From: an uncultured Candidatus Saccharibacteria bacterium
GTDB lineage: Bacteria > Patescibacteriota > Saccharimonadia > Saccharimonadales > CAYVSP01
Direction of reading: 5' to 3'
Assembly: GCA_964584265.1 (NCBI GenBank)
Contig: CAZOZI010000007.1
Span: 1 to 38,844 of the forward strand
DNA: 38,844 nucleotides
A model generated the notes under the pieces. That model made no database searches. It was not told where the DNA came from and was given only the letters and a program-made list of their open reading frames with translations. The position numbers and the translations under genes were made by a program. Positions 5,212-35,432 of the stretch are shown here, one piece after another (within the stretch, counting starts at the first letter, position 1; each line of letters opens with the position of its first letter).

Positions 5212-5310
5212 TTTGGATGCAGTACAAGGAAGCAACGAGAACCGAGCGAGTCGTATACAGACATACGATGAGCGAGGCTCACAGGAAGCTGACGCCGTAA
5301 TGCGCCAAAA
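5212..5310 (+). repeat. structured intergenic repeat, copy 1 (ERIC/RPE-like core)
   Basis: TTGGATGCAGTACAAGGAA (5213-5231) is identical to 35185-35203. TGACGCCGTAATGCGCCAA is 18/19 identical to 35261-35279. Apical GAG-TCGTAT-acagac-ATACGA-TGA hairpin. Confidence 0.8.
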
Positions 5311-5336
5311 GCCGCGGCAGTTTGTGTCTGGCTTGG

Positions 5337-5909
5337 CTAGGCAGCAGGCCGCGGTGGCGCAGAGTTCTTATTAAACCAGTCTAGATAGTGTTGAAGCTCA
5401 GCAATTGAGGCTTGAATATCATCGAAAGCACGGTGTACTTCTTTCTTTTCATAAACCACCCCGAATTTGCCTTGCATGAAGACTTTCCAGGCGCTGACGT
5501 CGAGCATACGGTAATGCAGCTTCAGATCCAGTGCTGGCATCCATTGTTTGATAAACAAACGGTCGTTATAAATTGAGTTGCCAGCTAGTACTGCCAATTC
5601 ATCACCAAAATGCTTGTTCACCAGTTGTAGTAGTTCGTTTTCTACATCTTTGAGCGGCTTCCCTTCCTCAATGCTTTTAAGAAAACCATCGCGGTTGGCT
5701 GGAAAATCTTTCCACCAAGTATTAGCCTGCATGCGCGTAACCACAGTTTCACGCTTTTGCTGCACGCTGGTTTCATAAGATTCCAGTGTTTTAAGATCAA
5801 AGTCAGTTATTTCAGCCGCCACTTCCAATATAACGTCCTGCTTGGGCTCCAAGCCTGTCATCTCGAGATCAACCCATAATAGTTTGGTCGGAAATACGTC
5901 ACTCGCCAT
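5337..5909 (-). CDS. orn: oligoribonuclease
   Basis: LLWVDLEMTGL, LAGNSI..DRLFI..MP.L...LHYRMLDVS, HRAFDDI (DEDDh exonuclease motifs). Confidence 0.95.
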   Translation of the reverse strand: MASDVFPTKLLWVDLEMTGLEPKQDVILEVAAEITDFDLKTLESYETSVQQKRETVVTRMQANTWWKDFPANRDGFLKSIEEGKPLKDVENELLQLVNKHFGDELAVLAGNSIYNDRLFIKQWMPALDLKLHYRMLDVSAWKVFMQGKFGVVYEKKEVHRAFDDIQASIAELQHYLDWFNKNSAPPRPAA

Positions 5910-5953
5910 TGCATATCATTGTAGCAAGATAGAGGGTCGAAAACTGCGGTTTG

Positions 5954-6988
5954 TTAATATATCTTTCCTTCGGTATTAATTTCACCAACAAAGTTGCGGT
6001 TCATAACCTCTTTAACGGATTCATACGGTACATGTTTAATTGCCCACATAAATTTGACAATAGTGCATTCAATAGACATATCATGTGCTTGTATTACGCC
6101 AGCTTTAAGTGCCTTAGTGCCTACATCATCCATGTGCATCAATGTAGCTCCTTCCATACATTGTGTACTTACGACCACTGGTATTTTTCTTTTTTTGAGG
6201 TGCTCTAAAATATTCAAGTAGGCGTACGATATGCCGCCAGCTCCATAACTACGCAAGATTACACCACTAATACCTTCGTGTAGGCTCGCCTCCAGTGCAG
6301 TCGGATTCATTTGCGGAAAGAGCGTGATGACTGCAATATTGTCATCAAAGCCAGTTTGCAGATCAAGCGGCCTATCATGTCTAGGTTGATGATCATCAGA
6401 CAAACGTATGTTCAAACGGATTTCGCCCAGGTCATCCCAATTAATTGTTTCAAATGCATCGAGTCTCGATTCTGAAACCTTTGAGGCACGTGCTCCTAAA
6501 ATAATTTCTTCATCGAATACAATCATCACACCTGAAATATTGAGCGTCGCTAGCCTAATAGCGTTGACGAAATTGCGCCTTGCGTCAGTTTCTATTTGAT
6601 CTCCAGGAATTTGCGAACCGGTGAGAACAACCGGCTTGCCCAAATTTTGCAACGTGAACGACAAAGCACTGGATGTATAAGCCATTGTGTTCGTGCCGTG
6701 TGTTATAACGAACCCATCATAGTTATCGTATTTTTTATCGATAATTTTAGAAATTCTATCCCAGTGTTTAGAGGTTATGTTGGTGCTATCGATATTATCT
6801 ATATATTCAATAGTAATGTCTGCAATATCGCTGATATTGGGTTCAATCCTAAGCAAATTTCTGATGGCCCGCTGTTTGCTTGCCATATCCAAAATACCTT
6901 CTTTGGTCTTTTCCATGACGATGGTTCCGCCACAAAACAGAATCAATACCTTGGGTAAACGTGTGATTGGTTTGCGTGTCTTAACCAT
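5954..6988 (-). CDS. ansA: type I L-asparaginase-like protein
   Basis: GGTI motif, NIDSTNI, THGTNTMAYT, KPVVLTGSQIP, DARRN. ATG 6988 follows an AAGGAG SD. Confidence 0.88.
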   Translation of the reverse strand: MVKTRKPITRLPKVLILFCGGTIVMEKTKEGILDMASKQRAIRNLLRIEPNISDIADITIEYIDNIDSTNITSKHWDRISKIIDKKYDNYDGFVITHGTNTMAYTSSALSFTLQNLGKPVVLTGSQIPGDQIETDARRNFVNAIRLATLNISGVMIVFDEEIILGARASKVSESRLDAFETINWDDLGEIRLNIRLSDDHQPRHDRPLDLQTGFDDNIAVITLFPQMNPTALEASLHEGISGVILRSYGAGGISYAYLNILEHLKKRKIPVVVSTQCMEGATLMHMDDVGTKALKAGVIQAHDMSIECTIVKFMWAIKHVPYESVKEVMNRNFVGEINTEGKIY

Positions 6989-8168
6989 GACTAACTCCTT
7001 CATTATTATTGACTGTCAAAGACTCGAGTTCCTCGATGTTGACATTTATCAGGCTATGCTTGCCTCCTAAAATTGAATCCATATCCTCGGTAAGTTCGTA
7101 CATTCCATAGAGCATGAAGGTAGCAACTAAAACAGCTACCAAACCTACTAAGCCTGGTAACAGAAAAGCGAGCAGAATTATGTAGAGTATGGTCACTTGG
7201 TGAAGTAGCACATCATAGACTCTGGGAGTAATGCGAGTTTTTTTGCTTAATACATAGCTAGCGTCTTTACTAATATCCCCATAAAGCGTCGTCAGTTCTG
7301 CCGGGTTAGGTTCTATTTTCACGATAGCACCGTATAGTTTTTTGTCGGCAGTTAATATTAAGTAGTTATTTGCTTGAGGATTCTTCAATATTTCTAGAAA
7401 AACACCCGCCCATTGTGCAACGACTTTTTTGCCTATACTCGCTTTGCGGTGATTGAGTATTGTCGCCAGTGCTGTTAGCTTGCCATAAATATTGGTAATT
7501 GTCTCTTCGATGTTCAGAAATTTGTTGTAGGATACCGCAATTTTTTGGGACAAAATAATACCCAAAGCCGAACCCATAGTGCCGAGTAAATTGGTTAGGT
7601 CTGGTGCGATAAACCATAGATGGTGCATTTCGAGTACCCAGATAACACCTTTCAAAATACCAAATATTAAAAGTATGGGGAAAATGACTTCTAAAATGGA
7701 GTCTTTGAAGACGAAAAATTTTTTGATAAAGCGACTATATTCAAATAATTTCAAAATCCTGAGCAGACGACTTAGACGCAATAGCCTTAACAACCTGATT
7801 TCCTGGGTAGGTATAAAAACTTGCAAAAGCAATTCAACGTAGTTCGGCAGTACAGCTAGTAGATCAATTATGTTCCTTGGCTTCTTAACAAATGCCCACT
7901 TTTTCGGTGCTGAGATGAATCTCAACAAATACTCGATGGTAAATGCAACCAGTATTATCAAGTTGAGAACATGGAATTGCCCTGTGTGCCGTTGGTAGAG
8001 GCCATCACTAAATAATTCAAGCAGAGTTATTATTACCGAGCTAAAAATCAATACGGTAATGAAACCCTGAACCATATAGGCCCAGACGGTATTGGGATGT
8101 TCAAAGAAGCTGTTAATCTTTTGAAGCATCTGTTTATTGATTAATCGTTGTATCTTCATAGTAATCAT
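6981..8168 (-). CDS. ion-transport voltage-sensor (S1-S4) domain fused to a second membrane domain, possibly bestrophin/DUF4239-like; no K+ pore filter
   Basis: FTIEYLLRF (S2), NIIDLLAVLP (S3), Arg-repeat S4 RLLRLLRLSRLLRILK. No TxGYG motif. About four further TM segments with a soluble helical insert. Confidence 0.7.
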   Translation of the reverse strand: MITMKIQRLINKQMLQKINSFFEHPNTVWAYMVQGFITVLIFSSVIITLLELFSDGLYQRHTGQFHVLNLIILVAFTIEYLLRFISAPKKWAFVKKPRNIIDLLAVLPNYVELLLQVFIPTQEIRLLRLLRLSRLLRILKLFEYSRFIKKFFVFKDSILEVIFPILLIFGILKGVIWVLEMHHLWFIAPDLTNLLGTMGSALGIILSQKIAVSYNKFLNIEETITNIYGKLTALATILNHRKASIGKKVVAQWAGVFLEILKNPQANNYLILTADKKLYGAIVKIEPNPAELTTLYGDISKDASYVLSKKTRITPRVYDVLLHQVTILYIILLAFLLPGLVGLVAVLVATFMLYGMYELTEDMDSILGGKHSLINVNIEELESLTVNNNEGVSHG

Positions 8169-9598
8169 TTCTTGTGCTTAGGCCGTCGGCGTTTCCGACG
8201 TGCTGAACTGGGAATGCGAATTTCCGCAGACTCAGAAGCATCATCGTGGCTAGCAGTTTCAATCCATACCGGCGCTTCCGCTTCCGGTGGTAGACCCAAA
8301 TCACGACGTGCATCCTGCACCATTTGGCGTCTTTTATCTAAATAGACTTGGAGATCTTTGCGCACCAGTATGCCCAGATCGTCAACACTCAGGTCAAACG
8401 GCAGCGAATAATTCTCATCAAGTAATCTTTCTAGCGATTGTGGTTGATGCCCGTGCTCAGCGCTCTGTCTATCAAGCCGGCGCGCTTTATCCTTATTTCT
8501 AGCCAGTCGTTTGGCATTTTCATCTCGACGCCTCTCTTCACTGATGCCTTGGCGGTTTTGCCTAAGTTCTTCCAACGCTTGGTCAAGCAGACCATCAGGT
8601 TCTAATATGTCCTCTCCAACCAAGTTTTTGCCAATTTTGTCGATCATCTTCGAGACCGCTTCTGGCAAGTTATTTAATTCAAACTCCAGGAAGAATGCTT
8701 TCAGGCCTTCACTGGTATCACCGAGCATATAAATAATGTCGCGTTCGTGTGTACGACTACCGTGGCGAGCTTTATTGAACGCATTTATCGTTAAGGCTCC
8801 TAGGCCAGCCAATGCTATTACGTGTGGTGGCCACTCCAGCTTGCTCAACATTGCTTCTTGCTGTCCGCGCAGCGCTAAGTCAGCCGCGATGGCTGTGCCA
8901 AAATAGGCACCCATAATACCAGGACCTAAAAAGCCGAGTATTGCTGCCGATCTTTTTTCCTTCATCTTATCTAGTTCACGCCAGACAGGCAGTAACGCTG
9001 CAAAGACCGTACCTATTGGATAGTACAGACCGGTGTCAAACCGACTTTCTCCAAATGACATGGTAGAAAACGTTGCTAACGCAGCCATGCCTGTTAGAAC
9101 AGTTCGTTTAGCATGAGGACTATCAATAAATTCATCAATGCTTGCTGAACGACGATCTGCAAAGCTGCCCGGAGTTTGATGAAACGTTTTAGCCGCTTTA
9201 GCCGCTGCCAGCATAGGAAACAGCGAGAAAACACCGGCTGCTATCAGCGCGGCTTGCTCTCCAGTATCAAACGAATTAAACCAATCTCTGGCTTCGTCAA
9301 ACTTGCTCGTCTCATGAATATCAGCTTCTGTGGATGGCGTAACGACTGTGGTTGCCACATGATCTGATATTTGCTCAACCACGGCTACATCGTGCGGTAC
9401 AAATGCCTCATGTGCAGCGTAAAGCCCGCTACCAATGAGACTAGCCCGCATAAGAACAGGCGCCAATTTCTTGGCTATTCTCATGAACGGACGCCTTGTT
9501 TCTGCAGCAATTACAAGTTGACCCCCGTTGGTTTCCGCTGATGACAGCGACAAACTGTTAGGGGCGTTCGGGTATAAATTACCTCTACCATTATCCAT
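8165..9598 (-). CDS. multi-pass membrane hypothetical protein with coiled-coil and basic C-terminus
   Basis: Several hydrophobic helices, charged helical tail, terminal RRKRRRPKHKK. Stop overlaps the next start (ATGA). Start placed at MDNGRG. Confidence 0.7.
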   Translation of the reverse strand: MDNGRGNLYPNAPNSLSLSSAETNGGQLVIAAETRRPFMRIAKKLAPVLMRASLIGSGLYAAHEAFVPHDVAVVEQISDHVATTVVTPSTEADIHETSKFDEARDWFNSFDTGEQAALIAAGVFSLFPMLAAAKAAKTFHQTPGSFADRRSASIDEFIDSPHAKRTVLTGMAALATFSTMSFGESRFDTGLYYPIGTVFAALLPVWRELDKMKEKRSAAILGFLGPGIMGAYFGTAIAADLALRGQQEAMLSKLEWPPHVIALAGLGALTINAFNKARHGSRTHERDIIYMLGDTSEGLKAFFLEFELNNLPEAVSKMIDKIGKNLVGEDILEPDGLLDQALEELRQNRQGISEERRRDENAKRLARNKDKARRLDRQSAEHGHQPQSLERLLDENYSLPFDLSVDDLGILVRKDLQVYLDKRRQMVQDARRDLGLPPEAEAPVWIETASHDDASESAEIRIPSSARRKRRRPKHKK

Positions 9599-9642
9599 AA
9601 CGAACAGTAGTAAAACATCATTGTTGCAAATTGTAAAAATAC

Positions 9643-9670
9643 TTGCATAATTGTTCAGATTTGCTATAAT
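9643..9670 (+). promoter_or_regulatory. promoter TTGCAT-16-TATAAT with overlapping palindrome
   Basis: TTGCAT 9643-9648 and TGcTATAAT ending 9670. TGCATAATTGTTCA (9644-9657) is an imperfect palindrome. Confidence 0.55.
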
Positions 9671-9692
9671 GTGTTTAGAATTAAACATATTT

Positions 9693-10364
9693 ATGATATC
9701 TATCCCCCAGAAAATAGAAGAAATTATCAATCAAAGCCCTTATTTAAGAGAGGCTTTGACAGATGACATCATCAATTTGTCTGCTCTTTCACGCCAATTA
9801 AAGCCACGGATTGAAAATGAGCTCATTAAAAATGTAACTAATGAAGCGGTTTTTATGGCACTGCAACGTTACCAGAAATCAATCAAACCATATTACACTG
9901 TTAATCCGGCTGATTATTTAGCTAATCTTGGGTTGCGTAGTGATTTGTTTGAGTTGACTGTAAAGAACTCACCTACCCTGCTGGCCAAACTATCTAAATT
10001 GGCGCAGCGTATCGTTGATGAACACACAGCAGTGTTTGTATTTACGCAAGGATTGAATGAAACCACCCTTATTACCAGCAACAGCTTGCGAACTGACCTC
10101 GCCAAACTACTAAAAGAAGAACGAGTTACTAAGAAAATTGATAATTTAGTTGGCATTACCTTGCAGCGTACCCATGCTCAGATTGAAACCACTGGCGTGC
10201 TGCAGTATCCATTGCGCATTTTAGCTTGGCAGGAAATTTCAGTTATTGAAATAATAACGACCTTAAACGACATTATGGTCATCGTACGCGACTTCGAAGT
10301 CGACCGCGCCGTAGCCTCCATACGCCAAGCTTTGAAATCGAACAAAGAAAAAACCAAATCTTAG
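9693..10364 (+). CDS. ACT-domain protein with N-terminal helical/HTH-like domain (family often labelled aspartate kinase-like; no kinase domain seen)
   Basis: SPYLREAL..DIINLSALSRQLKP...AVFMALQRY N-terminus, then ACT-like repeats (TQGLNETTLI; GVLQYPLRILAWQEISVIEIITT). Confidence 0.75.
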   Translation: MISIPQKIEEIINQSPYLREALTDDIINLSALSRQLKPRIENELIKNVTNEAVFMALQRYQKSIKPYYTVNPADYLANLGLRSDLFELTVKNSPTLLAKLSKLAQRIVDEHTAVFVFTQGLNETTLITSNSLRTDLAKLLKEERVTKKIDNLVGITLQRTHAQIETTGVLQYPLRILAWQEISVIEIITTLNDIMVIVRDFEVDRAVASIRQALKSNKEKTKS

Positions 10365-10388
10365 TTTTTGGCCTAAAGTCTAGCGAAT

Positions 10389-10511
10389 CTTAGCTTTGCA
10401 TTTGTGTGCAGTTTGGGATTTCTTCATGAGCAGCGCAAAGGAGTCGTACAAGTGGTACGGTGAATGCGCAGCGCAGTGAAAAATCACAAAATGTGCCAAG
10501 AACAGCTCAAG
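10389..10511 (+). repeat. structured intergenic repeat, copy 2 (long hairpin)
   Basis: Apical GAG-TCGTAC-aagtg-GTACGG-TGAATG matches copies 1 and 4. Flanking stems GCGCA/TGCGC, TTCAT/GTGAA, TTTGGGATTT/AAATCACAAA. Lies between convergent genes. Confidence 0.65.
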
Positions 10512-10517
10512 AACAAG

Positions 10518-10922
10518 CTACTTGTTCGCTTGCTTCTTGGGCTGTGGTGCAAAGTCTAAGGCACAAGAGTTGATGCAGAAGCGCATCCCAGTTGGCTGAT
10601 CCGATGCATCATTGAAAAGATGACCTAGATGTCCGCCGCAATTGCTGCAAGTTACTTCTACTCTATGAATGCCGTGCGATTTATCCTCGGTTAACTTGAC
10701 CGACCCTTTACTAGCTACATCGTAAAAGCTTGGCCAACCAGAGCCTGAGTCAAACTTGGTTTTGCTATCGAACAGTTCGGCGCCACAGTTAGCACAGGTG
10801 TACATACCAGAGTCTTTGTTATGCAAAAACGTGCCAGTAAACGGCGCCTCGGTCGCTTTATTGAAAAGTACATCCTTCTGCTCTTCAGAGAGTTTCGGAT
10901 TCAGTGCGGGTTTTACCGCCAT
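10518..10922 (-). CDS. msrB: peptide-methionine (R)-S-oxide reductase
   Basis: TEAPFTG, CANCGAELF, KFDSGSGWPSF, CSNCGGHLGHLF, RFCINS. Confidence 0.97.
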   Translation of the reverse strand: MAVKPALNPKLSEEQKDVLFNKATEAPFTGTFLHNKDSGMYTCANCGAELFDSKTKFDSGSGWPSFYDVASKGSVKLTEDKSHGIHRVEVTCSNCGGHLGHLFNDASDQPTGMRFCINSCALDFAPQPKKQANK

Positions 10923-10934
10923 CCAGATCTCCTA

Positions 10935-11225
10935 TTACTTTTTGCCACCCATGAAAAGGCTATGCAGGCCAATATATATCCAACACAAAATTTCTAGCGC
11001 CAGAAGTTCTAAGATCAAACCAACTAAAGGCTGCACATAAGTTACTTTATAGCCACCGCCAGGTGCACCATAAGCTGGAGCCATACTGCCCCATTGCCAT
11101 AGAGCAACTCTGCCGGCTAGTTCCTGTGTGACTTGAGCTACAAACTGCACCACAAACATTGCCACAACAACGCCCACTATTAATGAAGACGCATCTTTGC
11201 GCTTTAATACTTTTACTACCACCAT
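10935..11225 (-). CDS. small two-TM membrane protein
   Basis: Two hydrophobic helices; GGAGG SD upstream. Confidence 0.7.
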   Translation of the reverse strand: MVVVKVLKRKDASSLIVGVVVAMFVVQFVAQVTQELAGRVALWQWGSMAPAYGAPGGGYKVTYVQPLVGLILELLALEILCWIYIGLHSLFMGGKK

Positions 11226-11289
11226 TTTGGTATCCTCCGTTTTATTACTAAGCTTAATTATATGCTTATGCTAGATTGAAGCAATAGTT

Positions 11290-16208: not shown

Positions 16209-16865
16209 ATGTACCGCGTTGATTTTCACACCCACTCCAAAGCTTCACCCGACGGTGGCCTAACTCAGGATCAATACGACAAAGCCCTAAGAGAAGGACT
16301 TATTGATTGTGTTGCAGTAACTGATCATAACCGCATTGATAATGCTGTGGCTTTGCAGCAGGCATTAGGAGAAAGCCGCGTTATAGTTGGCGAAGAAATT
16401 ATGACTTCGGTCGGTGAGATTGTTGGCCTGTTTTTGAAAAAACCCGTGCTTGCAAACTTAACTCCTCTAGCAACCGTTAAGGCAATTAAGGCTCAAGGCG
16501 CCTTTGTCTATATCCCCCACCCGTTTGAAACCGTTCGTCATGGATTGAGCACTAAAGCATTAGAAGAAATTTCTGATTATGTTGATATAGTCGAGGTACA
16601 CAATGGTCGTGCCTGGCTACAAAACCGCGGACCGCGAGCAGCCGCTTGGGCAAAACTACACCACAAATTACGGACTGCCAGCAGTGATGCACATGGCTAT
16701 CGGGGTTTAGGTAGTGGTATAACCCTGCTTGAAGAAATTCCAACCCGCGACACACTGCTGCAGCTATTATCAACAGCGCACCTTAGTACTAAACGGCCTC
16801 ATTTGCGCAGCTTGTTTTATCCCAAGTTACACCGTATCGGACATAAATTAAGGTTACGCGTGTGA
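16209..16865 (+). CDS. PHP domain phosphoesterase
   Basis: DFHTHS..SPDG, AVTDHN, GEEI, PHPF, SSDAH. Confidence 0.9.
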   Translation: MYRVDFHTHSKASPDGGLTQDQYDKALREGLIDCVAVTDHNRIDNAVALQQALGESRVIVGEEIMTSVGEIVGLFLKKPVLANLTPLATVKAIKAQGAFVYIPHPFETVRHGLSTKALEEISDYVDIVEVHNGRAWLQNRGPRAAAWAKLHHKLRTASSDAHGYRGLGSGITLLEEIPTRDTLLQLLSTAHLSTKRPHLRSLFYPKLHRIGHKLRLRV

Positions 16866-17404
16866 TTAATAACATTATTTTTGCACTTTGGTTTTTCTTG
16901 CCAGCTGGACTAGCTAATGCTGCGCCAGTGTTCGCCAGTCAATTTCCATTGCTTAGGCGATGGAATACACCTCTAGACTTCGGTAAAAGCTTTCGCGGGC
17001 GTCGCATTTTTGGCGATAACAAGACATGGCGTGGTGTGGTTTGCGGTGTACTTGTGGCCGGCGGCATCGCTTTTACCCAGAATGCCTGGATAATTAGTTT
17101 ATCCTTAGCATATAGTTGGCAGCCGCTCATTCTTTCAACAAGTGCTGGCATGCTTATGGGTTTTGGTGCGCTGATGGGGGATGCTATTGAAAGCTTTTTG
17201 AAGCGCCAAGTTGGTGTGCCAGACGGTCGGAGTTGGTTCCCCTTTGATCAACTAGATTATATTATTGGCGGTTTGGCCGCTAGCACATTAGTTGTTCATC
17301 TAGCCACATATCAATACGTCAGCATCATTGTAGTGTGGTTTGTGATGCATATAGTCGCTGGTTTTATTGCTTACAGGCTGGGCTTCAAAGAACGCCCTAT
17401 TTAG
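16862..17404 (+). CDS. CDP-archaeol synthase (CarS)-like cytidylyltransferase
   Basis: LPAGLANAAPV, PLDFGK...RRIFGDNKTWRG, GDAIESFLKRQ, FDQLDY. GTG start overlaps the PHP stop. Confidence 0.85.
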   Translation: MINNIIFALWFFLPAGLANAAPVFASQFPLLRRWNTPLDFGKSFRGRRIFGDNKTWRGVVCGVLVAGGIAFTQNAWIISLSLAYSWQPLILSTSAGMLMGFGALMGDAIESFLKRQVGVPDGRSWFPFDQLDYIIGGLAASTLVVHLATYQYVSIIVVWFVMHIVAGFIAYRLGFKERPI

Positions 17405-19085: not shown

Positions 19086-19087
19086 GT

Positions 19088-20156: not shown

Positions 20157-20318
20157 ATGGCAAGCGTAATGCAAAATCTGTCTTTTAGCCAGAAGTCTTA
20201 GCGGATCAGAAATTTCTAGACGGAGCGAGACATATCTGTAGATATATCGAGTGAGGGATAGAGGTTTCTGGCCGCTTAGGCACTGGGTAGGAGGCATGTT
20301 TTGTGTTGCGGTTGCCAT
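20157..20318 (+). repeat. 162-nt long hairpin rich in G-U pairs; structured repeat copy 3 or candidate ncRNA
   Basis: ATGGCAA/TTGCCAT, CGTAATGCAAAA/TTTTGTGTTGCG, TGTCTTTTAGCCAG/CTGGGTAGGAGGCA, GTCTTAGCGG/CCGCTTAGGC, TCAGAAATTTCTA/TAGAGGTTTCTGG. Apex GAGCGAG-acatatc-tgta-gatatatc-GAGTGAG resembles copy 1. Confidence 0.7.
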
Positions 20319-27889: not shown

Positions 27890-30800
27890 ATAGTAAGTTG
27901 CTGTCTCTGAAGACCAGCAATCATTCTTGATCCATCAACAATTTCTATCTGGCCATTAGGTAGCCACCTGCATCTTATACCAAGAGCTAGAAACATACGG
28001 TTTACTGCTCTATGGGTCATTGCGCTGCCGCCAGAACTTGTGCTCAGCTCATACGGTGCAAGTGAAGACGGTGTACGCTCTTCTTCTGATAGGTATATAT
28101 CCATAGTTTCATTTATCATGTTTTCTACAGTTTTAATGAGTTTTTTCTGATTCTTTTTGCTTTTAAGATCCGGTGGCGTTAAATCCCGTTGGGCTACACG
28201 TAAGCTGTCGCTTGCTCCAACTCCACCTTCCCATTGATTTACTGGTGCACCGCTATCATTAAGCATGTGTTCGATGGCTCTGCGACCTGATGTCACTATA
28301 GTACTTTTGCGTCCAAGATAACTTGTTGGAGTATGCGTTGTAGCGCCTTTGCGGGCTAGTTTTACGGATCTCTGAAGATGTTTATCTTCGGCGTAAATCG
28401 ATGTAGGATCATATCCGCCAGTGGCCATGTATATTGCCGGCCTAAAGGCGTGGTTTGCCCCAGACAAGCCAACTACTTTGTATCTTACCCTATTATGAAT
28501 GTCTAGCATCTGCATAAAACGAGTTGATATAAGCATTTCTGGATATGCTGCATATTCTTCTGGACTGGCAAAATCAATATTACCTAGAAAGCTGTCTACT
28601 TCAGGCTGTGCGCTAGTTTTTTCAATTACTGTTTTGACGTATTCTTCATGCACACTGTGAGTATCCACGTCTTGTTCCGCAATTATTACTTTATTTAGGT
28701 CTACTCCTCTTGTACGTAGGTCTTGCAAAATAACGTCGGTTAAATCTTTCCTTACGCCATTAAGCACCCATGGTTGCTTTGTTTCAGAATCTGGTAGCTG
28801 ACGCTCAATAAACCTAACTACAACCTCGGGATGTTCTTTCTGAAATCTCTCTATCTCAGATGTAGTTTTATCTTTTTTGGCACCTTCAGGGTAGTTAGCA
28901 TAAACTACGATTTCATAGTCATCGGATGTCACACCTTTTTGTTTTACATATTGTTGTAGTGTGTTATATACGCTACCGCCCTCTTGATGTGCTGCTGCTG
29001 CTATAGCTATAACAACTTTTGGATTCGTGGCTTTTGGCTGGCGGTCCAACTGTTTTACTAACCCGGCAATCTTTTTTTGTTGTTGCTTGGTTTGTCCAGC
29101 GAAGTAACGGTCTGCAATTTCTGTTGCATCGAGTTCAAAATCTGGATCTGTTAATAATTCTGGGGCAAATGGTAATACTTCTCTGCGCTCTGCCAATTCG
29201 CGTGCAGCCCGTTTGGCGCTCTCAATATATGGGATTGGTCTATCAACATAGCCATATGGGGCTCGTCTTCTAGCGTCAGTGTAGTAGTAGGGCGATCTTT
29301 CAGATGGATAACTAAGTTTTTCGAGCCCTCGGCGCCAATAAAATGGGAAAACTGGTGCAATTTCGGTTGGTAGAGGCGCTTCAATCGGTACGGCAAGAGT
29401 GCTAGTAACCCGTTCGTGAAGTTCTGGGACAAGTCGGGTAATTGTGTCTACGCCGGGTTTTGGTTGATTATCGCCGACTAACGTGGCAAGTGTGCGAACG
29501 CTTGTTTCGCCATTAGGGTTTGTGCCAGAAACTTGCATGACTTCTGCAAAACCGCCATTGAAATGGGCGTGTCCGCCGGTAGCATCAAACACACTCTGCC
29601 CGACAAACGAGTTATGATCAATGACACCGTTGCCATCATGGTCAATTGACACTAGCTGAACCCAGTGCTGCGTGCCGCGGCTCATTGAAATACCCATTTT
29701 TAGCTGGCCTGAATCAATCAATTCCTGGAAGTGTGCAGCTTGATCGGCATGGAATGAGCCACCCGCCATCATATGGTGAACGTTGAAGACGTAGTCACCA
29801 TTAGCGTTTATGCCTGTGCCGCTATCCCCGCCCCACTGCAGCTTGAGTTCATTAAGGTCAAACTTTGGTGCAGGCGTATTGTTGTCGTACCACAGATCGC
29901 GGTGTACAGCTGCAAATTGTTCCGGGTGAGCGTTAATAAAGTCCTCTGGTGAGCGTTGGACCTGCGTAACTTCAGTATGCGTGGTCTGCCAGGTATCCAT
30001 TACATCATGGTGCTGAATTCCGTGGCTATCTAACACGGCTTGCGTATGGGCATCAAAATGCCCTTGCTCGTCAAACCCTACATGATCAATTACCGTCTTT
30101 CCATTGGGACCAATTAAGTTATGGACTCCATTTGCGCTATCGATATGATAGCCAGACGGTAATACGACCGATGCATGTTCGTTTATGGCCTGAGGTGCAA
30201 GGTTCCCCTCAGCTATGTGATGCGTCGGCAAATTGTCGTGCCTCAGCAAACCAGCCATTACAGTGCGGCGATCATTGCCTGACTTAGCATGTTCAAACAC
30301 GCTCTGCATTTCACTTGATACCAGAGCGTGCATTTCCTGGACGGCCAAGCCAATGCCAATACCGCTTGCAAATGAAATTGCACCCATTTTCCACGTTCGG
30401 TTACGTCGCAACTTTTGGAAAACTCTATCCTTGTCAGATACTTCGGCCTTCATAATGTCTGCAGTCCAGCTGCTCATGGCATCAATCGTTTCGCCTACAC
30501 TGCCTGAAACGAGGCCTGCAGCACGGCGAACACTATCATCAACACCATCAACTATGGTTTGCAGTTTTACTCTAAGTTGAAAAGTTAGTAGATCTAGATC
30601 AAAACGTTGTTGTTCAACCTCGGTTTTGCCATCGTATGTGATAAAGTCAGCGTTTGTATCATCCGACATCTTTATTCTGGTACTAACATGGCCTAAATCT
30701 GCAACTGCGCGCGCCAGTAGTTGGGCGTCAACGCTACCATCAAGTAATAAATCGAGCTCTTGAAGGCCGGTAATAAGATCGCTTGCTGCAGCTGTTTCAT

Positions 30801-31797
30801 ACCGCGTCGCTTCTAATTGCTCGCGTCGCCTACCGGCAGCGGGCCCGGCAGTTTCGTCACCCTCCGCCATTTGCCGTCCATGGAGTTGCCGTTCCTGTTT
30901 AATGCGCAAACGTTCGCGTAAACCACCAAATACACCTGCCCCAACGCCCAAGCCAACGGTAGCTGCTGCTGCCATACCTGCCTTACGAAATACGAATTTA
31001 CCGGCTGACATAGCCAAGCCAACTCCAGCCGCTAGTGTTGTGTCATTAACTAAACAGCCAACTTTATTTTTTTGCAGTTTTTCCAAAACGCGGTCGGCAG
31101 CATCGCGCTTTGCCTCAGTACGCACCCCCACGTGGGCTTCGCCGATCTTAGCACTCAGTGCAGCGTCGATTCGGTCAATACCAACGCCATGTTCAAACGC
31201 GGCACGAGCTTCCATGGCGACTTCTATAACGTTGTCTATCAATACCAAGCCTTTTTTACTATCGCTTGCAACTCTAAGGTTGCTGCTAATAACTTCTATC
31301 AAACGGGTTTTTTCGGCTTGTAGCGTATCGACGTCAATTCTACCTGATGCAAAATCATTTACGAGAGCACTTAATTGATTGGTCAACGCCTCGCCATTGT
31401 TTATACTGGCCAGTTCTTCGTTGGCCTCTCCGCTATGTAATAGACCAGCTTCATTAGTGAACCGTTTAACTACGGGTGCCATAGCACGGTCGTGCTCTTC
31501 TTTAGTGCCTTTTTCTAAGGCCCATACATCATTATTTTGGTCAATCTTGGCGTTATTCTTAGCGATTTCGCGCAGTCTTATATAGTCGCGTGCAATGTTA
31601 CCGTGCCAAATACGCTTTAGCAGACCCCGGAAACCGCGCTCAGTTGTCTGTTCATTAATAAACTCATCTGCCCTGTCTATGGAATTTGCCGTTCTGCCTT
31701 CAGTTACATCAACGACCTGAATCTTCATGCCTTTTTTCAGCTGTTCATCAGTCTTTGCTTCTACTGCCGGTTCAGGTGGAGCGAGTGTTTCTGCCAT
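27886..31797 (-). CDS. large multi-domain membrane protein with C-terminal GT2 (GT-A fold) glycosyltransferase domain
   Basis: Helical N-terminus, Gly/Ala-rich hydrophobic hairpin, a third hydrophobic helix and a His/Gly-rich region. GT2 features: VVIAIAAAAHQE, YEIVVYAN, EQDVD (DxD), GANHAFR...GGY...EDK. Confidence 0.8.
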   Translation of the reverse strand: MAETLAPPEPAVEAKTDEQLKKGMKIQVVDVTEGRTANSIDRADEFINEQTTERGFRGLLKRIWHGNIARDYIRLREIAKNNAKIDQNNDVWALEKGTKEEHDRAMAPVVKRFTNEAGLLHSGEANEELASINNGEALTNQLSALVNDFASGRIDVDTLQAEKTRLIEVISSNLRVASDSKKGLVLIDNVIEVAMEARAAFEHGVGIDRIDAALSAKIGEAHVGVRTEAKRDAADRVLEKLQKNKVGCLVNDTTLAAGVGLAMSAGKFVFRKAGMAAAATVGLGVGAGVFGGLRERLRIKQERQLHGRQMAEGDETAGPAAGRRREQLEATRYETAAASDLITGLQELDLLLDGSVDAQLLARAVADLGHVSTRIKMSDDTNADFITYDGKTEVEQQRFDLDLLTFQLRVKLQTIVDGVDDSVRRAAGLVSGSVGETIDAMSSWTADIMKAEVSDKDRVFQKLRRNRTWKMGAISFASGIGIGLAVQEMHALVSSEMQSVFEHAKSGNDRRTVMAGLLRHDNLPTHHIAEGNLAPQAINEHASVVLPSGYHIDSANGVHNLIGPNGKTVIDHVGFDEQGHFDAHTQAVLDSHGIQHHDVMDTWQTTHTEVTQVQRSPEDFINAHPEQFAAVHRDLWYDNNTPAPKFDLNELKLQWGGDSGTGINANGDYVFNVHHMMAGGSFHADQAAHFQELIDSGQLKMGISMSRGTQHWVQLVSIDHDGNGVIDHNSFVGQSVFDATGGHAHFNGGFAEVMQVSGTNPNGETSVRTLATLVGDNQPKPGVDTITRLVPELHERVTSTLAVPIEAPLPTEIAPVFPFYWRRGLEKLSYPSERSPYYYTDARRRAPYGYVDRPIPYIESAKRAARELAERREVLPFAPELLTDPDFELDATEIADRYFAGQTKQQQKKIAGLVKQLDRQPKATNPKVVIAIAAAAHQEGGSVYNTLQQYVKQKGVTSDDYEIVVYANYPEGAKKDKTTSEIERFQKEHPEVVVRFIERQLPDSETKQPWVLNGVRKDLTDVILQDLRTRGVDLNKVIIAEQDVDTHSVHEEYVKTVIEKTSAQPEVDSFLGNIDFASPEEYAAYPEMLISTRFMQMLDIHNRVRYKVVGLSGANHAFRPAIYMATGGYDPTSIYAEDKHLQRSVKLARKGATTHTPTSYLGRKSTIVTSGRRAIEHMLNDSGAPVNQWEGGVGASDSLRVAQRDLTPPDLKSKKNQKKLIKTVENMINETMDIYLSEEERTPSSLAPYELSTSSGGSAMTHRAVNRMFLALGIRCRWLPNGQIEIVDGSRMIAGLQRQQLTI

Positions 31798-31806
31798 GGG
31801 GTTTTC

Positions 31807-32106
31807 CTATGCAGCTTTACCTAAGTAGAGCGCACGAAATTCTAATAAGGCCGCGGCAGTTATGCTTTCTTTGTCGGCTACATTTTTTTCGATAAAGTTT
31901 TGCAGAGCTGAGGTGTCGTTCGGCTGCTCATCTAAGATTTTTTCAAATTCAGCAAGCTGCTCATCGCTCAGCGAATCTATCATACGTCGGTTTACAAAAT
32001 CAGTCGCCCGGCTTACCAGGTCGGCAGCTAATTGTTTGCGCACTTCCGGGTCAACACCTTCCGGCACGCCCTTATCTTTTAAGAGTTGCTCAATAAATTC
32101 TTCCAT
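31807..32106 (-). CDS. small acidic helical protein (DUF5663-like)
   Basis: FIEQLL...PEVRKQL...VNRRMIDSLSDEQLAEFEKIL...LLEFRALYL. Ends 9 nt upstream of the giant gene. Family assignment from memory. Confidence 0.7.
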   Translation of the reverse strand: MEEFIEQLLKDKGVPEGVDPEVRKQLAADLVSRATDFVNRRMIDSLSDEQLAEFEKILDEQPNDTSALQNFIEKNVADKESITAAALLEFRALYLGKAA

Positions 32107-32271
32107 TTTTCACGCTTTCTGCTTTTGAGATTAATCCTCTATTAATTGAAGCAATAATTTGTAGTAAAAACAACCTTTATCTTTACTCGATTTATTCTAC
32201 AATGAATTTGCAAAAATTCAACTTTAGTTTTGGGATTGCTTAAGCAGACAAAAGTAAGAGTGCAAATACTT

Positions 32272-32300
32272 TTGACAATTATATCTGTTACTGTCATAAT
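32272..32300 (+). promoter_or_regulatory. sigma70 promoter TTGACA-17-CATAAT
   Basis: TTGACA attatatctgttactgt CATAAT, 8 nt before ATG 32309. Confidence 0.7.
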
Positions 32301-32308
32301 AACCGTAG

Positions 32309-32620
32309 ATGATTGATGCTGTTCGTGAACCAGAGCCTAAAAACATCGGTGAACTCTTATGGTCCCGAGATGCAGTGATAGATTTGGAAAAGAATGGGTA
32401 TACCTTAATGGGCCGCTATAGCGGTTCTGCACTCAAGGATGGCGTACAGCTTAGTATTGTACAGCCGGATGGAAGTTGGGCACAAATTGTGCACAGCGTT
32501 GAAGAAATTGCCGCTGGTTATGCTAATGATACAGATGTTAAGATAATTACCCAAGAACGCGACGGCGAAAACCTTTGGAAAGAAATCTGGGCACAATCTA
32601 AACCTGATCAGACCTCCTGA
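32309..32620 (+). CDS. hypothetical protein (103 aa)
   Basis: ORF immediately after a consensus promoter. Confidence 0.65.
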   Translation: MIDAVREPEPKNIGELLWSRDAVIDLEKNGYTLMGRYSGSALKDGVQLSIVQPDGSWAQIVHSVEEIAAGYANDTDVKIITQERDGENLWKEIWAQSKPDQTS

Positions 32621-32669
32621 CCTGCTCTCAAGCTTTACGCTGCCATTCATACCTTGTACCCTATATCCT

Positions 32670-33731
32670 ATGCGCATTTTGGGTATAGAAACCAGCTGTG
32701 ACGAAACAGCTGCTGCTGTGGTTGAAGATGGTAAGCGCTTACTGTCTAATGTAGTCCTCTCAAGTATGGATTTGCACAAGGCCTATGGCGGTGTGGTGCC
32801 GGAGATAGCCGCCCGCTCGCACATTGAGGCTATTATGCCCGTTATTGAACAAGCTCTGCAGCAAGCAAAAACGGATTGGGTCCAAATAGACGCAGTAGCC
32901 GTAACACACGGTGCTGGTCTTGGTGGCTCTCTTTTAATTGGCGTTCTAACGGCTCGCACGCTGGCAATTATCAAGAAAAGGCCGTTGTACGGCATTAACC
33001 ACGTCGAGGGTCATATATACGTCAATTTTTTAACAGAGACTCCCCTGCCCGATTATTATTTGCCTGAAAAAACGCCCGAATTTCCAATGTTGGGCCTTAT
33101 TGTCTCAGGTGGGCATTCCCAGTTAGTGATGTGGCAAGACCACTTTAAGTACAAACTACTCGGTCAAACGCGTGATGACGCAATCGGCGAAGCTTTTGAT
33201 AAAGTAGCCAAAATCACCGGCCTCCCCTACCCCGGCGGTCCATCAATTGAGCAAGCCGCGAAAAAGGGTGACCCATTTGCCTACAGCTTTCCGAAGGCAA
33301 GACTTGCTGGAAAATATGATTTTAGCTTCTCCGGCGTGAAAACTGCTGTTTTAAGGGCCGCACAGGGGTTAGTCGGTGAAGATTTCACGTTTCCCTCTTC
33401 AAAGCTGCCAGAGCGGCTCTCTGAAGCCCAGAAGGCGGACTTGTGCGCCAGTTTCCAGCGGGTTGCTATTGAAACGGTGGTGGATAAGACAGTGCTGGCC
33501 TTCGAAGAGTTTAAGCCTAAATCTGTTGTTATAGGGGGAGGTGTTGCGGCAAGTTCTGCCTTACGCGATCAGTTATCTAAGCGTCTCCCCTACCCCATTT
33601 CTTACACCGACCGCAAGCTATGTACCGACAACGGTGCCATGATCGCCACCCTCGGCTGCTACAAAGCCATGCTCAAACAACCAACCGCCGACCCCTATTC
33701 TCTAGAAATCGCCCCAAATTTATCAATGTAA
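32670..33731 (+). CDS. tsaD: tRNA N6-adenosine threonylcarbamoyltransferase
   Basis: ILGIETSCDET, GGVVPEIAARSH, NHVEGH, VSGGHS, DDAIGEAFDK, CTDNGAMIA. Confidence 0.98.
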   Translation: MRILGIETSCDETAAAVVEDGKRLLSNVVLSSMDLHKAYGGVVPEIAARSHIEAIMPVIEQALQQAKTDWVQIDAVAVTHGAGLGGSLLIGVLTARTLAIIKKRPLYGINHVEGHIYVNFLTETPLPDYYLPEKTPEFPMLGLIVSGGHSQLVMWQDHFKYKLLGQTRDDAIGEAFDKVAKITGLPYPGGPSIEQAAKKGDPFAYSFPKARLAGKYDFSFSGVKTAVLRAAQGLVGEDFTFPSSKLPERLSEAQKADLCASFQRVAIETVVDKTVLAFEEFKPKSVVIGGGVAASSALRDQLSKRLPYPISYTDRKLCTDNGAMIATLGCYKAMLKQPTADPYSLEIAPNLSM

Positions 33732-33749
33732 GGTTGGTCTTTCAAAAAT

Positions 33750-35018
33750 TCATCTCTTAAACGTTGGACGTCTATCAATTAGCCACGGCGCCTCTGGTTT
33801 TACACCTATGGCTTTACAAGCAGCAGCAAATAACCCCGGAGTTAATTCTGCGCCACTAGCCAGGGCTTCATCGAGAAATTCGCCCACATGAGCCATACGA
33901 GCACTATGGGCATCTCCGTCTAGACCCATTATAGGTTCTTGTACAAAACCAACGTGCATAGGTTCTACGCCTGCAATCTGCCCTTGTAGTGGATGCTCGC
34001 TCTCTAGCCAGATGTCAGGATACTGGTCATGTAGCCCAGCAATGATTGCTGCCATTTCCTCTGGGTTCCAGGTATAGATATCGCAGCTATCGTATGAATG
34101 GGATTCTGTTTTGGTAAGCATGGCAATCCCCTGCTCAGCTGCTTGCTCCCACACTTTTGCAATAAATTCTTGAGCCTGTGCTTGCTGTTCAGGCGTCTCA
34201 AGATTTAGCGAAAGATAAAATTTAAATCTGCCATCGGGATTTTCTTCTATAAGTTTTGCTACATTGGCACCTGTTTCAATCGGAAAGGATAGGCCATTTT
34301 CCTTAGGTATCATGCCGTGTTTACTAGTGTCATAACGGTGTGCTCCGCGTATTTTTGGCTTGAGGCTATAGCGAAGCATCATTTCCGCCACCTCCCCTGA
34401 AAGCACATTTTTAAACTCACCATGTTTTTTTACTAGCGCACCTAGGCTAGAATCTGTTAGACGCGCGAAGCTTTCTTCTGCGGTTGGTGCAATATCTCTA
34501 CCTTCTATGCGATTACTGGCTTCTTGAGCCGCAGCACGTTGTCTAAGCCAAGCACTTTCAACTTCCTCGCTTTTTGATCTCACTGAGTCAGGTGTTGGTA
34601 AAATCCTATCTTCATCGGTGACAACCGTGTCGTCACCGATACCACGCGAGTATCTGGCTAATTCTTCCATAAGCCTTGGTGGATTATCCGGATTGGCTGC
34701 AAACTCATTCCAGCTGTAGGGTGAAGGCTGGTCAGGATCTATGTTGCGATCTCTTGTGTGCATTTCAAGTGTCCTTTTGGGACGCCCCATATTGGTATGT
34801 ACTGTTCCAGTTGTTGTATCATCTTCGGGAACATCCTCAGTTTCGGTTGTAATGTCTACGGCAACTTCACCAGCAGCATGCGCATCTGCAGCTAAGACTT
34901 CTGGCGCACGAGTATAAGGCTCCACAGAATCAGTACTTTCTAAATCGTCTCTAAACCGCATATTGCTATGCACGCCACCAGGTGTGGGCTCTTTGATTGA
35001 TGGATCTATATCTGACAT
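33750..35018 (-). CDS. hypothetical protein: acidic disordered N-terminus plus possible HopA1-like C-terminal domain
   Basis: FKFYLSL...AMLTK...DSCDIY...EHPL...VGFVQEP...SARM pattern resembles the HopA1 family as I recall it. Confidence 0.6.
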   Translation of the reverse strand: MSDIDPSIKEPTPGGVHSNMRFRDDLESTDSVEPYTRAPEVLAADAHAAGEVAVDITTETEDVPEDDTTTGTVHTNMGRPKRTLEMHTRDRNIDPDQPSPYSWNEFAANPDNPPRLMEELARYSRGIGDDTVVTDEDRILPTPDSVRSKSEEVESAWLRQRAAAQEASNRIEGRDIAPTAEESFARLTDSSLGALVKKHGEFKNVLSGEVAEMMLRYSLKPKIRGAHRYDTSKHGMIPKENGLSFPIETGANVAKLIEENPDGRFKFYLSLNLETPEQQAQAQEFIAKVWEQAAEQGIAMLTKTESHSYDSCDIYTWNPEEMAAIIAGLHDQYPDIWLESEHPLQGQIAGVEPMHVGFVQEPIMGLDGDAHSARMAHVGEFLDEALASGAELTPGLFAAACKAIGVKPEAPWLIDRRPTFKR

Positions 35019-35047
35019 TTTTTGTTTTATCTTTGATTTACAACTCT

Positions 35048-35076
35048 ATTATAGCAAACCTTAAGCATTTTGTCAA
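35048..35076 (-). promoter_or_regulatory. perfect sigma70 promoter TTGACA-17-TATAAT (extended -10)
   Basis: Minus strand reads TTGACA aaatgcttaaggtttgc TATAAT. Confidence 0.85.
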
Positions 35077-35128
35077 TATTGTACCTCTGTTATTCTGCAT
35101 GCTATACTGGTTATGCAAAAACAAACAT

Positions 35129-35432
35129 GTAGGGGTAGGATCTGCAAATCCATGCAGGTAGCACACGCAGCACAACTTTCACGCTTGGATGCAGTACAAG
35201 GAACGAGCGAAGCACAGAATGAGCCGTATAACTAATACGGTGAATGAGTACTGGAGCTTGTGACGCAGTAATGCGCCAAGAGCATTGGCGGAGTTGCGAA
35301 CTCTGTTCGCAAGCAGGTCTGTGTCGTGGAGTTGTGAAAAACAGATGTCTTTAATTTGAGCATTAATATAGAGGGTTTTCAGGTGAAAACTCTTGAGATT
35401 AGTTCTCAGTTTCACATGAAATCTACCCCTGT
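35129..35432 (+). ncRNA. candidate ~300-nt structured RNA or MITE-like element containing repeat copy 4
   Basis: Ends pair (AGGGGTAG/CTACCCCT). Internal stems CACAACTTTCACG/CGTGGAGTTGTG, TTGCGAA/TTCGCAA, AGAGGGTTTTCA/TGAAAACTCT, TGAGA/TCTCA. Upstream TGcTATACT at 35103-35108. Confidence 0.5.
35185..35279 (+). repeat. structured intergenic repeat, copy 4
   Basis: 19/19 and 18/19 identical end blocks to copy 1. Apical GAG-CCGTAT-aacta-ATACGG-TGA. Confidence 0.8.

Follow-up and report, generated by a model that had tools for sequence, protein, structure and literature searches.

The window analysed here is a 38,844-nt stretch of DNA from an uncultured Candidatus Saccharibacteria bacterium, in which an earlier note had described four diverged copies of one structured intergenic element. 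All four hairpins, with their GAG-stem-loop-stem-(T/C)GA apices, were found on the plus strand where they had been placed, and each of them, copies 2 and 3 included, outperformed its dinucleotide shuffles (z −4.6, −5.3, −13.0, and −4.4). The end blocks common to copies 1 and 4 were matched exactly as described (19/19 and 18/19). The boundaries proposed for copies 1, 2, and 4 (95–120 nt) were too short: these copies run about 60 nt further in the 3′ direction, taking in another arm and the helix that closes the fold. These three copies are genuine members of one family of folded repeats of about 170 nt, whose fold is a three-way junction of 166–172 nt made of a closing helix P1, a rod P2, and a side arm P3 (Table 1). 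Copy 3, which had been counted as a fourth member, reached 13.5 bits with the full model, on the apex only, versus 94–155 bits for the other copies, and 18.8 bits with a rod-only model. This unbranched rod was assigned to a separate family B, homologues of which were detected in 2 of 40 relatives (G038 and G016; three homologues, 16/62 pairs covarying). A further match in the same homologue search consisted of 19 nt of flank only.

Table 1. Positions of the repeat copies, their parts, and the host features they touch in the window
Feature	Position	Strand	Basis
Copy 1, full three-way junction	5201..5368	+	147 bits with model R1; fold; helix ends
Rod P2 of copy 1	5213-5308	+	
Apical motif, copy 1	5248..5271	+	sequence
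Oligoribonuclease gene, frame now ending inside copy 1	5337..5909	-	ORF; NCBIfam PRK05359 above cut-off; alignment
Copy 2, divergent member	10389..10560	+	94 bits; fold z −5.3
Apical motif, copy 2	10441..10463	+	sequence
msrB, frame now ending inside copy 2	10518..10922	-	ORF; TIGR00357 above cut-off; alignment
Copy 3, unbranched rod (family B)	20157..20318	+	only apical motif common; −84.7 kcal/mol
Degenerate apical motif, copy 3	20227..20250	+	sequence; apex-only match, E 0.012
Conserved non-coding host region interrupted by copy 4	35103..35433	+	5-genome alignment
Copy 4, full element	35171..35336	+	154.5 bits
Apical motif, copy 4	35221..35243	+	sequence
Side arm P3 of copy 4 (approximate)	35282..35323	+	fold; consensus helices 7-9

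Comparison with relatives showed that all four window sites also exist in an empty form. Copy 1, which lies antisense to the oligoribonuclease gene (orn) and overlaps its last codons, is absent from five relatives, three of which could be aligned. At copy 2, the final codons of msrB, which lies on the other strand, align with the 3′ strand of P1 and a portion of P3; the site was aligned to four relatives lacking the element, and the left neighbor is not the same in relatives. The site of copy 3, located between divergent genes, is empty in 5/5 relatives. Copy 4 is cleanly inserted in the A-rich linker of a conserved non-coding stretch, and the exact empty site was found in 4/4 relatives; this host region carries a −10-like box and conserved blocks on both sides, with 79–96% identity in the 3′ block, and an Rfam search of its empty alleles returned no family. 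The description of the copies as intergenic thus holds in part, since the frames of orn and msrB extend into copies 1 and 2, respectively, while copy 4 interrupts a conserved non-coding region. The rod of copy 4 is 88–93% identical to copies in G002–G005, and these were rejected as its orthologues because they occupy unrelated sites.

A scan of the whole genome found 42 copies with a mean identity of ∼60%, counted on both strands, which corresponds to one copy per 19.5 kb rather than the one per 10 kb estimated from the window, and to ∼0.9% of the genome DNA. The 33 aligned copies have a mean identity of 60% and a maximum of 79%, and 91.4% of their helix cells are paired and 53/58 pairs show two-sided changes, as the earlier claim of compensatory change had suggested. 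None of 500 shuffles reached the observed pairing, and slid controls were 29–43% paired. Consensus helices 7–9, which form side arm P3, are 89–94% paired in these copies, and in a second genome with 21 copies 1037/1179 cells pair. The terminal columns are the least conserved part of the 33-copy alignment. The identities of P1, P2, and P3 are nearly uncorrelated between copies (rho 0.04–0.10), and a 120-nt rod form of the element is present in relatives. The bare apex is rejected as a diagnostic motif, because its 52 matches in the genome are at chance level (48 and 48 in two controls). Rfam 15 covariance models gave no match at the gathering threshold, and at E≤5 three weak matches elsewhere and none on the copies; a likeness of the apex to group II intron domain V was not supported by Rfam.

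The element was found in 87 of the 121 genomes of the order, and its copies are dispersed in both orientations. A replication-strand bias was rejected: the split was 20:22 as judged from a noisy third-position skew, and along one contig of 706 kb the strand changed 13 times over 33 copies. In other genomes, copies lie directly against tRNA genes and a 16S start, doublets occur occasionally, and neither exact pattern search nor blastn found a phage or plasmid carrying the element. Seven copies lie in frame and free of stop codons inside genes, namely an RluA-family pseudouridine synthase gene, uvrA, dus (three copies), polA, and mutM. While dus contains three inserts in G000, it contains one at a fourth site in G001, and of 10 shared sites, 4 carry variants that differ. 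A self-splicing or enzyme-spliced intron was rejected, as 6/6 scored in-gene copies use the two frames that, among 45 non-coding copies, are open in just 8 and 7; hence, the in-gene copies look translated, not spliced. Among the joints listed, none skipped copy 1 or 2. In DNA contigs from four runs of one study the empty alleles match the related species and do not reflect excision. The filled and empty sites described above, together with the covariation and the conservation of resident copies described below, support the earlier suggestion of a mobile module selected for its structure. A full-text search of the literature returned no paper on this family, although supplementary repeat lists, which are outside the reach of such a search, could hold the motif.

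The junctions of filled sites proved to be polar. Of 23 filled/empty sites, polarity was scored at the 18 that could be anchored on both sides, a set that leaves out five sites without a 5′ anchor and one without detectable P1. The 10 nt beyond the helix matched the empty allele at 79% at the 3′ end and at 40% at the 5′ end, with the 3′ flank matching better in 18/18 sites (p=2e-4), including 6/6 in-frame sites; these values derive from ungapped diagonals against alleles from other species, and outside the in-frame subset they are inflated by indels and by a 5′ flank that is more often intergenic. In the outer 10 nt of the helix itself, the 3′ arm matched the empty allele at 45% versus 23% (14 to 2, p=0.005). 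Hence, the 3′ junction is flush, with a closing arm that is often host DNA, while the 5′ junction is ragged. In uvrA, polA, and mutM, and over the start codon at G000 C2:58338, the 3′ arm encodes conserved host residues. Against this, the 3′ arm of copy 4 does not resemble host DNA (3% match). Two polA inserts that are antisense, read by eye, have the host-like arm on the upstream side of the gene, so the polarity goes with the element. In other genomes the stems at the ends are long and near-perfect, and most have no relation from one copy to the next. Because parts of P1 are common to related copies at different sites, this helix is also inherited. Neither conserved terminal repeats nor TA ends were seen in the 33-copy alignment or at filled/empty sites, and the filled/empty sites examined had no consistent direct target duplication.

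These observations are best explained, in our judgment at about even chances, by a palindromic mobile element, non-coding and carried by Saccharibacteria as well as other Patescibacteria, with polar insertion, which is likely copied into its target 3′ end first from its folded plus strand and whose copies are likely under purifying selection on this fold. A 3′-OH at the target would prime copying of the plus strand, present either as RNA or as single-stranded DNA, and a short stretch homologous to the 3′ arm of P1 could aid this priming. At the far end, the new strand would fold back or bring leader bases from the donor, so that at many sites host DNA would make up part of the rebuilt closing helix. 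The rod and the side arm would be swapped when copies recombine. The conserved purine-rich loops may be read, on the element's own strand and in any gene direction, by a host or visiting protein, in which case damage to an established copy would be costly.

The enzyme that moves the element was sought by its possible families. The earlier note had seen no transposase in the window, and this extends to the whole genome for the families searched, namely Y1, reverse transcriptase (RVT_1), DDE_Tnp_1, and IS110, which gave no matches; none of them was found in G000, G001, or G003. Any retro step would thus lack an obvious enzyme, since RVT_1 is absent and the presence of a reverse transcriptase does not track the element (20/87 genomes with it, 4/34 without, p=0.21). 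No multi-copy transposase-like protein was evident among 901 crude ORFs. A further point against the explanation above is that, in hand tallies in which kin are not independent, genes of Y1 transposases (34/87 versus 3/34, p=0.0009) and extra GIY-YIG genes (42/87 versus 8/34, p=0.014) co-occur with the element. In G000, GIY-YIG was represented by one small frame 26 kb from the nearest copy, in G001 and G003 by a UvrC-sized match only, and in G017 by none.

The co-occurrence of Y1 genes across the order is consistent with an alternative in which an ordinary non-autonomous transposon, MITE- or REPIN-like, was moved in trans by a visiting DDE or HUH transposase, while its odd ends arose later via template switching and selection. 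The multiple copies in both orientations, their patchy distribution, and the filled/empty sites would also fit this explanation, as would an E. coli repeat taken to be ERIC, which is related in its motif, and five copies located ∼2.5 kb or less from the three Y1 genes of G060. Elements of the IS200/IS605 type choose their target through pairing with a 5′ guide, which counts in the same direction. However, none of those five copies adjoins a Y1 gene, the other 17 of the 20 Y1 loci have no copy nearby, and the Y1 genes bear short palindromes of their own. DDE_Tnp_1 occurs in 14 of 121 genomes, and 0/8 of its loci are flanked by the element core. The lack of conserved terminal sequence, TA ends, and direct duplication, and the lack of Y1, DDE_Tnp_1, and IS110 in the three genomes named above, also speak against a transposon of this kind, as does the absence of near-identical copies within the genome. 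Moreover, later remodeling alone predicts no bias tied to the element strand. For these reasons we regard an ordinary transposon as unlikely.

The plus strand is the better-folding one in 31/33 copies when folded as RNA and in 58/59 when folded as DNA. Pairs of the G-U type outnumber A-C pairs 98:44, and 44:24 in copies antisense to their neighbors; the element's own strand folds best in either gene direction (Fisher p=0.75). Resident copies have diverged little. Orthologous copies in five pairs from congeners, ascertained by being recognizable, are identical at 705/826 positions (85%), while four-fold sites in the same comparison are identical at 515/1350 (38%). In an antisense ileS insert followed through 22 genomes, a set ascertained in the same way, 0/19 silent sites vary versus 95/120. 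These data suggest that resident copies are likely under purifying selection on the fold; against this, single changes between orthologues break or keep pairs equally often (23:23).

The independence of the fold bias from gene direction and the freezing of silent sites in an antisense in-frame copy could also be expected from what is mainly a host device acting on DNA, for example a single-strand hairpin bound in replication, repair, or uptake, which is spread and renewed by transformation and gene conversion, so that the apparent selection would partly reflect homing of site-specific variants. The shuffling of modules, with one rod variant 88–93% identical across genera at different sites, points in the same direction, as does the slightly raised four-fold identity within 100 nt of shared copies (49% versus 34–38%). 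On the other hand, 6/8 silent sites within 15 nt of the edge of the ileS insert vary, which argues against a co-conversion tract beside it. Because 34 of the order's 121 genomes (∼28%) show no copy, the element is not a core need; there is also no replichore orientation, and neither the new sites nor the polar ends are explained by such a device alone. Hence, a host device seems quite improbable. Very improbable, in our view, is a 5′ leader RNA acting in cis, either riboswitch-like or serving as a processing signal, in which the closing helix would hide the start of the next gene and so control it: a co-oriented gene follows 27 of 43 profile matches, in-frame copies included, the start codon at the G000 site mentioned above lies within the helix, copies adjoin tRNA genes and a 16S start, and a −10-like hexamer lies directly upstream of 16/30 copies, but the last signal is weak as evidence for a promoter of each copy (10/30 in the mirror control, 34% background), 16/43 matches face a convergent stop, seven copies are inside coding frames, copies 1 and 2 have no co-oriented gene directly behind them, the downstream genes are unrelated, orientations are mixed with no consistent 5′-UTR position before functionally related genes, one copy in G005 precedes the −10-like box of valS and so is outside its leader, and sites are gained and lost inside one genus. 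A leader effect may arise as a local side-effect at some sites.

The preferred reading, a mobile palindromic element with polar insertion, can be compared with several known systems. The E. coli K-12 aceF-lpd repeat, which we take to be ERIC although the record itself has no such annotation, shares the apex and the CAAGG/AACGC internal loop of the element, and ERIC/IRU repeats of enterobacteria likewise have intergenic and in-frame copies. The ERIC likeness claimed earlier therefore stands at the motif level, whereas the aceF-lpd repeat scored just 15.3 bits with the element model (E 0.035) and the whole K-12 chromosome gave no match at E≤0.1. The element also differs from ERIC in that the conserved terminal repeats, TA ends, and target duplication listed for the latter (PMC2229807, Table 1) are not seen. 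Rickettsia palindromic elements, RPE-1 and its relatives, described in PMC2229807 and PMC10969869, are loosely comparable in size and in having a long stem–loop, and are alike in their intergenic and in-frame copies in conserved genes and insertion into RNA genes; for them, too, target duplication and a mobilizing enzyme are not established. The RPE repeats are palindromes of 105–146 bp, while the element is branched and 166–172 nt long, belongs to another phylum, has ∼60% identity with near-complete compensation, and has a closing helix that is variable and partly host-derived. The proposed RPE likeness was borne out in behavior, by in-frame inserts in housekeeping genes, and not at the peptide level, where no RPE-named NCBIfam family appeared at E≤10 for five host proteins and five insert-region peptides (for UvrA, among the best 25 of 227 families). 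The NCBIfam library presumably includes an RPE model.

The REP/REPIN-RAYT system, which depends on a Y1 HUH enzyme, resembles the element in its single-strand hairpin logic, in having no direct duplication, and in occasional doublets, while the element is far longer and branched, no Y1 gene was found in G000, G001, and G003, and the palindromes of Y1 genes are other, short ones. Target-primed retroelements (SINE-like elements and group II intron retrohoming) have a precise 3′ junction, a ragged 5′ junction, and a structured non-coding passenger, and the element is alike in all three; it differs in that there was no reverse transcriptase in the high-copy genomes tested, no direct duplication, and no Rfam group II domain, and in that in-gene copies look translated. 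The mobile or repeat candidate MRSC-65-2 is similar as a multi-copy long stem with strong covariation, whose RNA or DNA form is described as undecided in PMC11109978. It is there defined as a single stem by a UYCCGG repeat, which is absent from the element consensus, and the main text of that paper never names Saccharibacteria.

A broader and rather doubtful extension of the preferred reading is that a folded strand of ∼170 nt is copied without a transposase, by target-primed synthesis with host enzymes, the closing helix being rebuilt at each target as an inverted rather than a direct duplication, with copies held by selection even antisense in genes, and that ERIC- and RPE-like repeats, through the apex and loop in common, form one cross-phylum superfamily moving likewise. 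A 2007 review (PMC2229807) counted the way in which palindromic elements of the RPE and ERIC type move among the open questions, and the present family makes this testable, since its junctions leave a measurable signature at numerous filled/empty sites. The cultured oral Saccharibacterium CP128407 has one copy, in ileS (locus L078), which could therefore be mutated and probed. The element accounts for inserts of 40–60 residues in housekeeping proteins of Saccharibacteria, and the fact that a streamlined genome devotes ∼0.9% of its sequence to a repeat as well conserved as first and second codon positions implies an unrecognized binding partner or cost.

The element proposed in the earlier note is real, and three of its four copies were upheld with longer boundaries. 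The four hairpins and their apices are present in the window sequence as described, and so are the two 19-nt end blocks of copies 1 and 4, while the flanks extended copies 1, 2 and 4 by about 60 nt on the 3′ side. A profile seeded with these three copies converged on 41 matches in the 0.82-Mb, 97.5% complete host genome, with the reversed genome giving none; the 41 do not include copy 3. The expected further copies were found by a covariance-model scan (42 in the genome at E<1e-14), and the element, short flanks included, makes up about 0.9% of the genome. The view that all four hairpins are copies of one element held for copies 1, 2 and 4 (147, 94 and 155 bits) and failed for copy 3 (13.5 bits, covariance model). 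The bare apex, proposed as their common link, occurs 52 times in the genome versus 48 and 48 in controls, so the apex alone is unable to connect the copies.

A structural alignment of 33 copies (three from the window and 30 others; three fetched divergent copies and six partial or nested copies were omitted) defined a fold of three parts: P1 is the closing helix, P2 is a rod that carries the apex and small internal loops rich in purines, and P3 is a side arm. Identity among these copies averaged 60%, with a maximum of 79%. The strongest covarying column pairs were nearly all Watson-Crick pairs of this three-way junction, and the suggested compensatory changes were borne out, with two-sided changes in 53 of 58 pairs and 91.4% of cells paired, as counted in the same alignment from which the structure was derived. 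None of 500 shuffles paired as highly, and slid partners gave 29-43%. In 21 copies from the congener G001, which lie outside the alignment, 1037 of 1179 cells were paired.

All four window sites are element-free in relatives, in agreement with the supposed mobility. Ten sites are common to the host genome (G000) and G001, six with orthologous copies (79-89%) and four with different variants (51-67%), and other G001 insertion sites are empty in G000. At one site (L060 in G001, L003 in the relative G005), a new G001 copy lies directly 3′ of an older copy's remnant, the end of which matches the G005 copy, and G000 is empty there, which suggests that one site has been used repeatedly. Seven in-frame sense copies lie in a pseudouridine synthase gene, uvrA, dus (three), polA and mutM, and antisense in-frame copies are also present in other genomes. 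All six scored in-gene copies use one or other of two frames; among 45 non-coding copies these frames are open in just 8 and 7, and hence in-gene copies are likely translated rather than spliced.

Neither a conserved terminus nor a consistent direct duplication was found among the copies and the filled and empty sites. Junctions were scored at 18 of 24 filled/empty sites, after one without detectable P1 and five without a 5′ anchor were dropped. For the 10 bases outside the helix, the match to the empty allele was 79% on the 3′ side and 40% on the 5′ side, with this polarity at 18/18 sites (p=2e-4) and 6/6 of the in-frame subset. Within the 3′ arm, the outermost 10 bases also matched the empty allele better (45% vs 23%; 14 to 2, p=0.005). 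In uvrA, polA, mutM and msrB, conserved host residues are encoded by the 3′ arm, and the complementary 5′ arm is new. Two polA inserts in antisense orientation carry the host-like arm on the gene's upstream side instead (judged by eye; other rows are noisy). Two observations count against this reading: the 3′ arm of copy 4 is not host-like, and parts of P1 are common to related copies. The identities of P1, P2 and P3 are almost uncorrelated (rho 0.04-0.10), and the rod of copy 4, but not its P1 and P3, shares 88-93% identity with copies that occupy different sites in other genera, which points to exchange of modules between copies. With moderate confidence, we propose that the target primes copying of the folded plus strand from its 3′ end; such a mode predicts that the junction is flush on the 3′ side and ragged on the 5′ side, and that part of the closing helix is remade out of host DNA. 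Recombination would shuffle the modules.

A MITE moved by a transposase and remodelled later is an unlikely alternative to such copying. It would agree with the empty sites in relatives, and the lack of matches to Y1, DDE_Tnp_1 and IS110 in G000, G001 and the relative G003 speaks against it. RVT_1, the reverse transcriptase that a retro step would call for, had no match in these three genomes either. Y1 and extra GIY-YIG genes were commoner in element-bearing genomes, in hand tallies over kin that are not independent. Element copies lie within 2.5 kb of the three Y1 loci of the relative G060; none was found near the remaining 17 Y1 loci or near 8 DDE loci, and Y1 genes carry palindromes of their own. 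We read the co-occurrence as general mobile-element load more probably than as the mark of a cognate enzyme.

Resident copies are under constraint. Identity within five orthologous pairs is 85% (705/826); in the flanking genes it is 84% over first and second codon positions and 38% over four-fold sites. Double changes kept the pair in 11 of 14 cases, and single changes split 23:23 between kept and broken. In an antisense rod in ileS, common to 22 genomes, 0/19 silent sites vary versus 95/120 in the flanks; the 19 sites lie outside the search pattern, but all 22 alleles were found through that pattern, so decayed alleles would go unseen. Silent identity beside copies shared with G001 was 49% within 100 nt versus 34-38% farther away, which makes short-tract homing possible. 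A host device at the DNA level with homing would draw on this rise, but the ileS flanks, variable up to the insert's edge, speak against it; we consider it quite improbable.

The plus strand folds better in 31/33 copies with RNA parameters and 58/59 with DNA parameters, and G-U outnumbers A-C by 98:44, a bias alike in sense copies and in those antisense to their neighbours (44:24; Fisher p=0.75). As the bias is independent of neighbour direction, the fold that counts is that of the element's own strand, as RNA or single-stranded DNA, and not simply host mRNA. By crude gene calls, the 43 profile matches comprise 21 that run the same way as both flanking genes and 12 that are antisense to both; a further 6 are divergent and 2 convergent, and the last 2 lie at contig ends. 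No replichore orientation of the copies was found. A regulatory leader would suit the co-oriented copies, but the mixed orientations and the in-frame copies speak against it; as the general role it is highly doubtful.

Copy 3 is a member of another rod family, B, with three homologues in two relatives. The terminal helix of the family B copy of G016 resembles the inner part of the closing helix in the main family, which hints at possible module exchange between them.

Locations of the element copies and of other features observed
Location	Feature	Observation
Window 5201-5368, 10389-10560, 35171-35336 (+)	Copies 1, 2, 4	About 170 nt
Window 20157-20318 (+); L219, L222, L220	Family B	Rarer, about 165-nt unbranched rod; apex same as main family
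C2:21278 and C3:72868; C4:12356 and C4:33532; C2:3952 (G000)	Other small repeat families	Similar purine-rich apices; each found twice or once
C3:97269-97529, C4:26701-26918 (G000)	Nested hairpin	Second GC-rich hairpin within rod; two copies
C3:108264-109727 (G000)	dus	Three in-frame copies (487 aa); G001 orthologue has one, at a fourth position
L113, L154, L169, L177 (other genomes)	Copies near RNA genes	Stop a few bases short of 16S rRNA start or tRNA-like genes (read from sequence; tRNA-Ser of L177 confirmed by ARAGORN)
L229-L248	RAYT-like Y1 genes of Saccharibacteria	Flanked by own short palindromes, different per locus
Window 35103-35433	Candidate RNA or binding-site cluster of unknown kind	Conserved, non-coding, upstream of valS (5/5 genomes); -10-like box, short variable hairpin, invariant block, covarying hairpin, presumably parS-like palindrome; blocks bracketed by repeated 10-11-nt motif; no Rfam match
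Window 33750-35018, 35453-35929	Two ORFs	Variable slots, one each side of conserved region; no Pfam/NCBIfam match, no tblastn match in fetched syntenic regions of 4 relatives
Window 5954-10364	4.4-kb block	Asparaginase, ion-channel-like gene, two poorly characterised genes; between orn and msrB, adjacent in G001, G002, G004, G005; copy 2 at edge
Window 16862-17404	CarS-like gene (CDP-archaeol synthase family)	In a bacterial genome; adjoins CDP-alcohol phosphatidyltransferase and PHP-domain genes

The element was matched in 87 of 121 genomes order-wide and in 12 of 141 phylum-wide, 8 of these outside the order. A strict core pattern matched at least 116 stretches in GTDB; among the matches listed, the 80 titled ones were mostly Saccharibacteria and other Patescibacteria. 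Outside the host's family the rod is often without P3, and the ends are long near-perfect stems, mostly different between copies. No match was found in the viral contigs, phages and plasmids searched.

The E. coli repeat used for comparison, which we take to be ERIC, has the apex and one internal loop in common with the element; the terminal repeat and target duplication of ERIC are absent from it. In behaviour the element can be likened to RPE, as portrayed in two reports (PMC2229807, PMC10969869); no RPE peptide homology was detected among the host proteins and insert-region peptides queried. It differs from MRSC-65-2, going by the description in PMC11109978. A full-text literature search found no description of the element, although supplementary material outside its reach may hold one. 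We regard the element as a variant form of palindromic insertion element. Under target-primed copying, a putative protein would read the conserved loops, and damage to established copies would therefore be costly.
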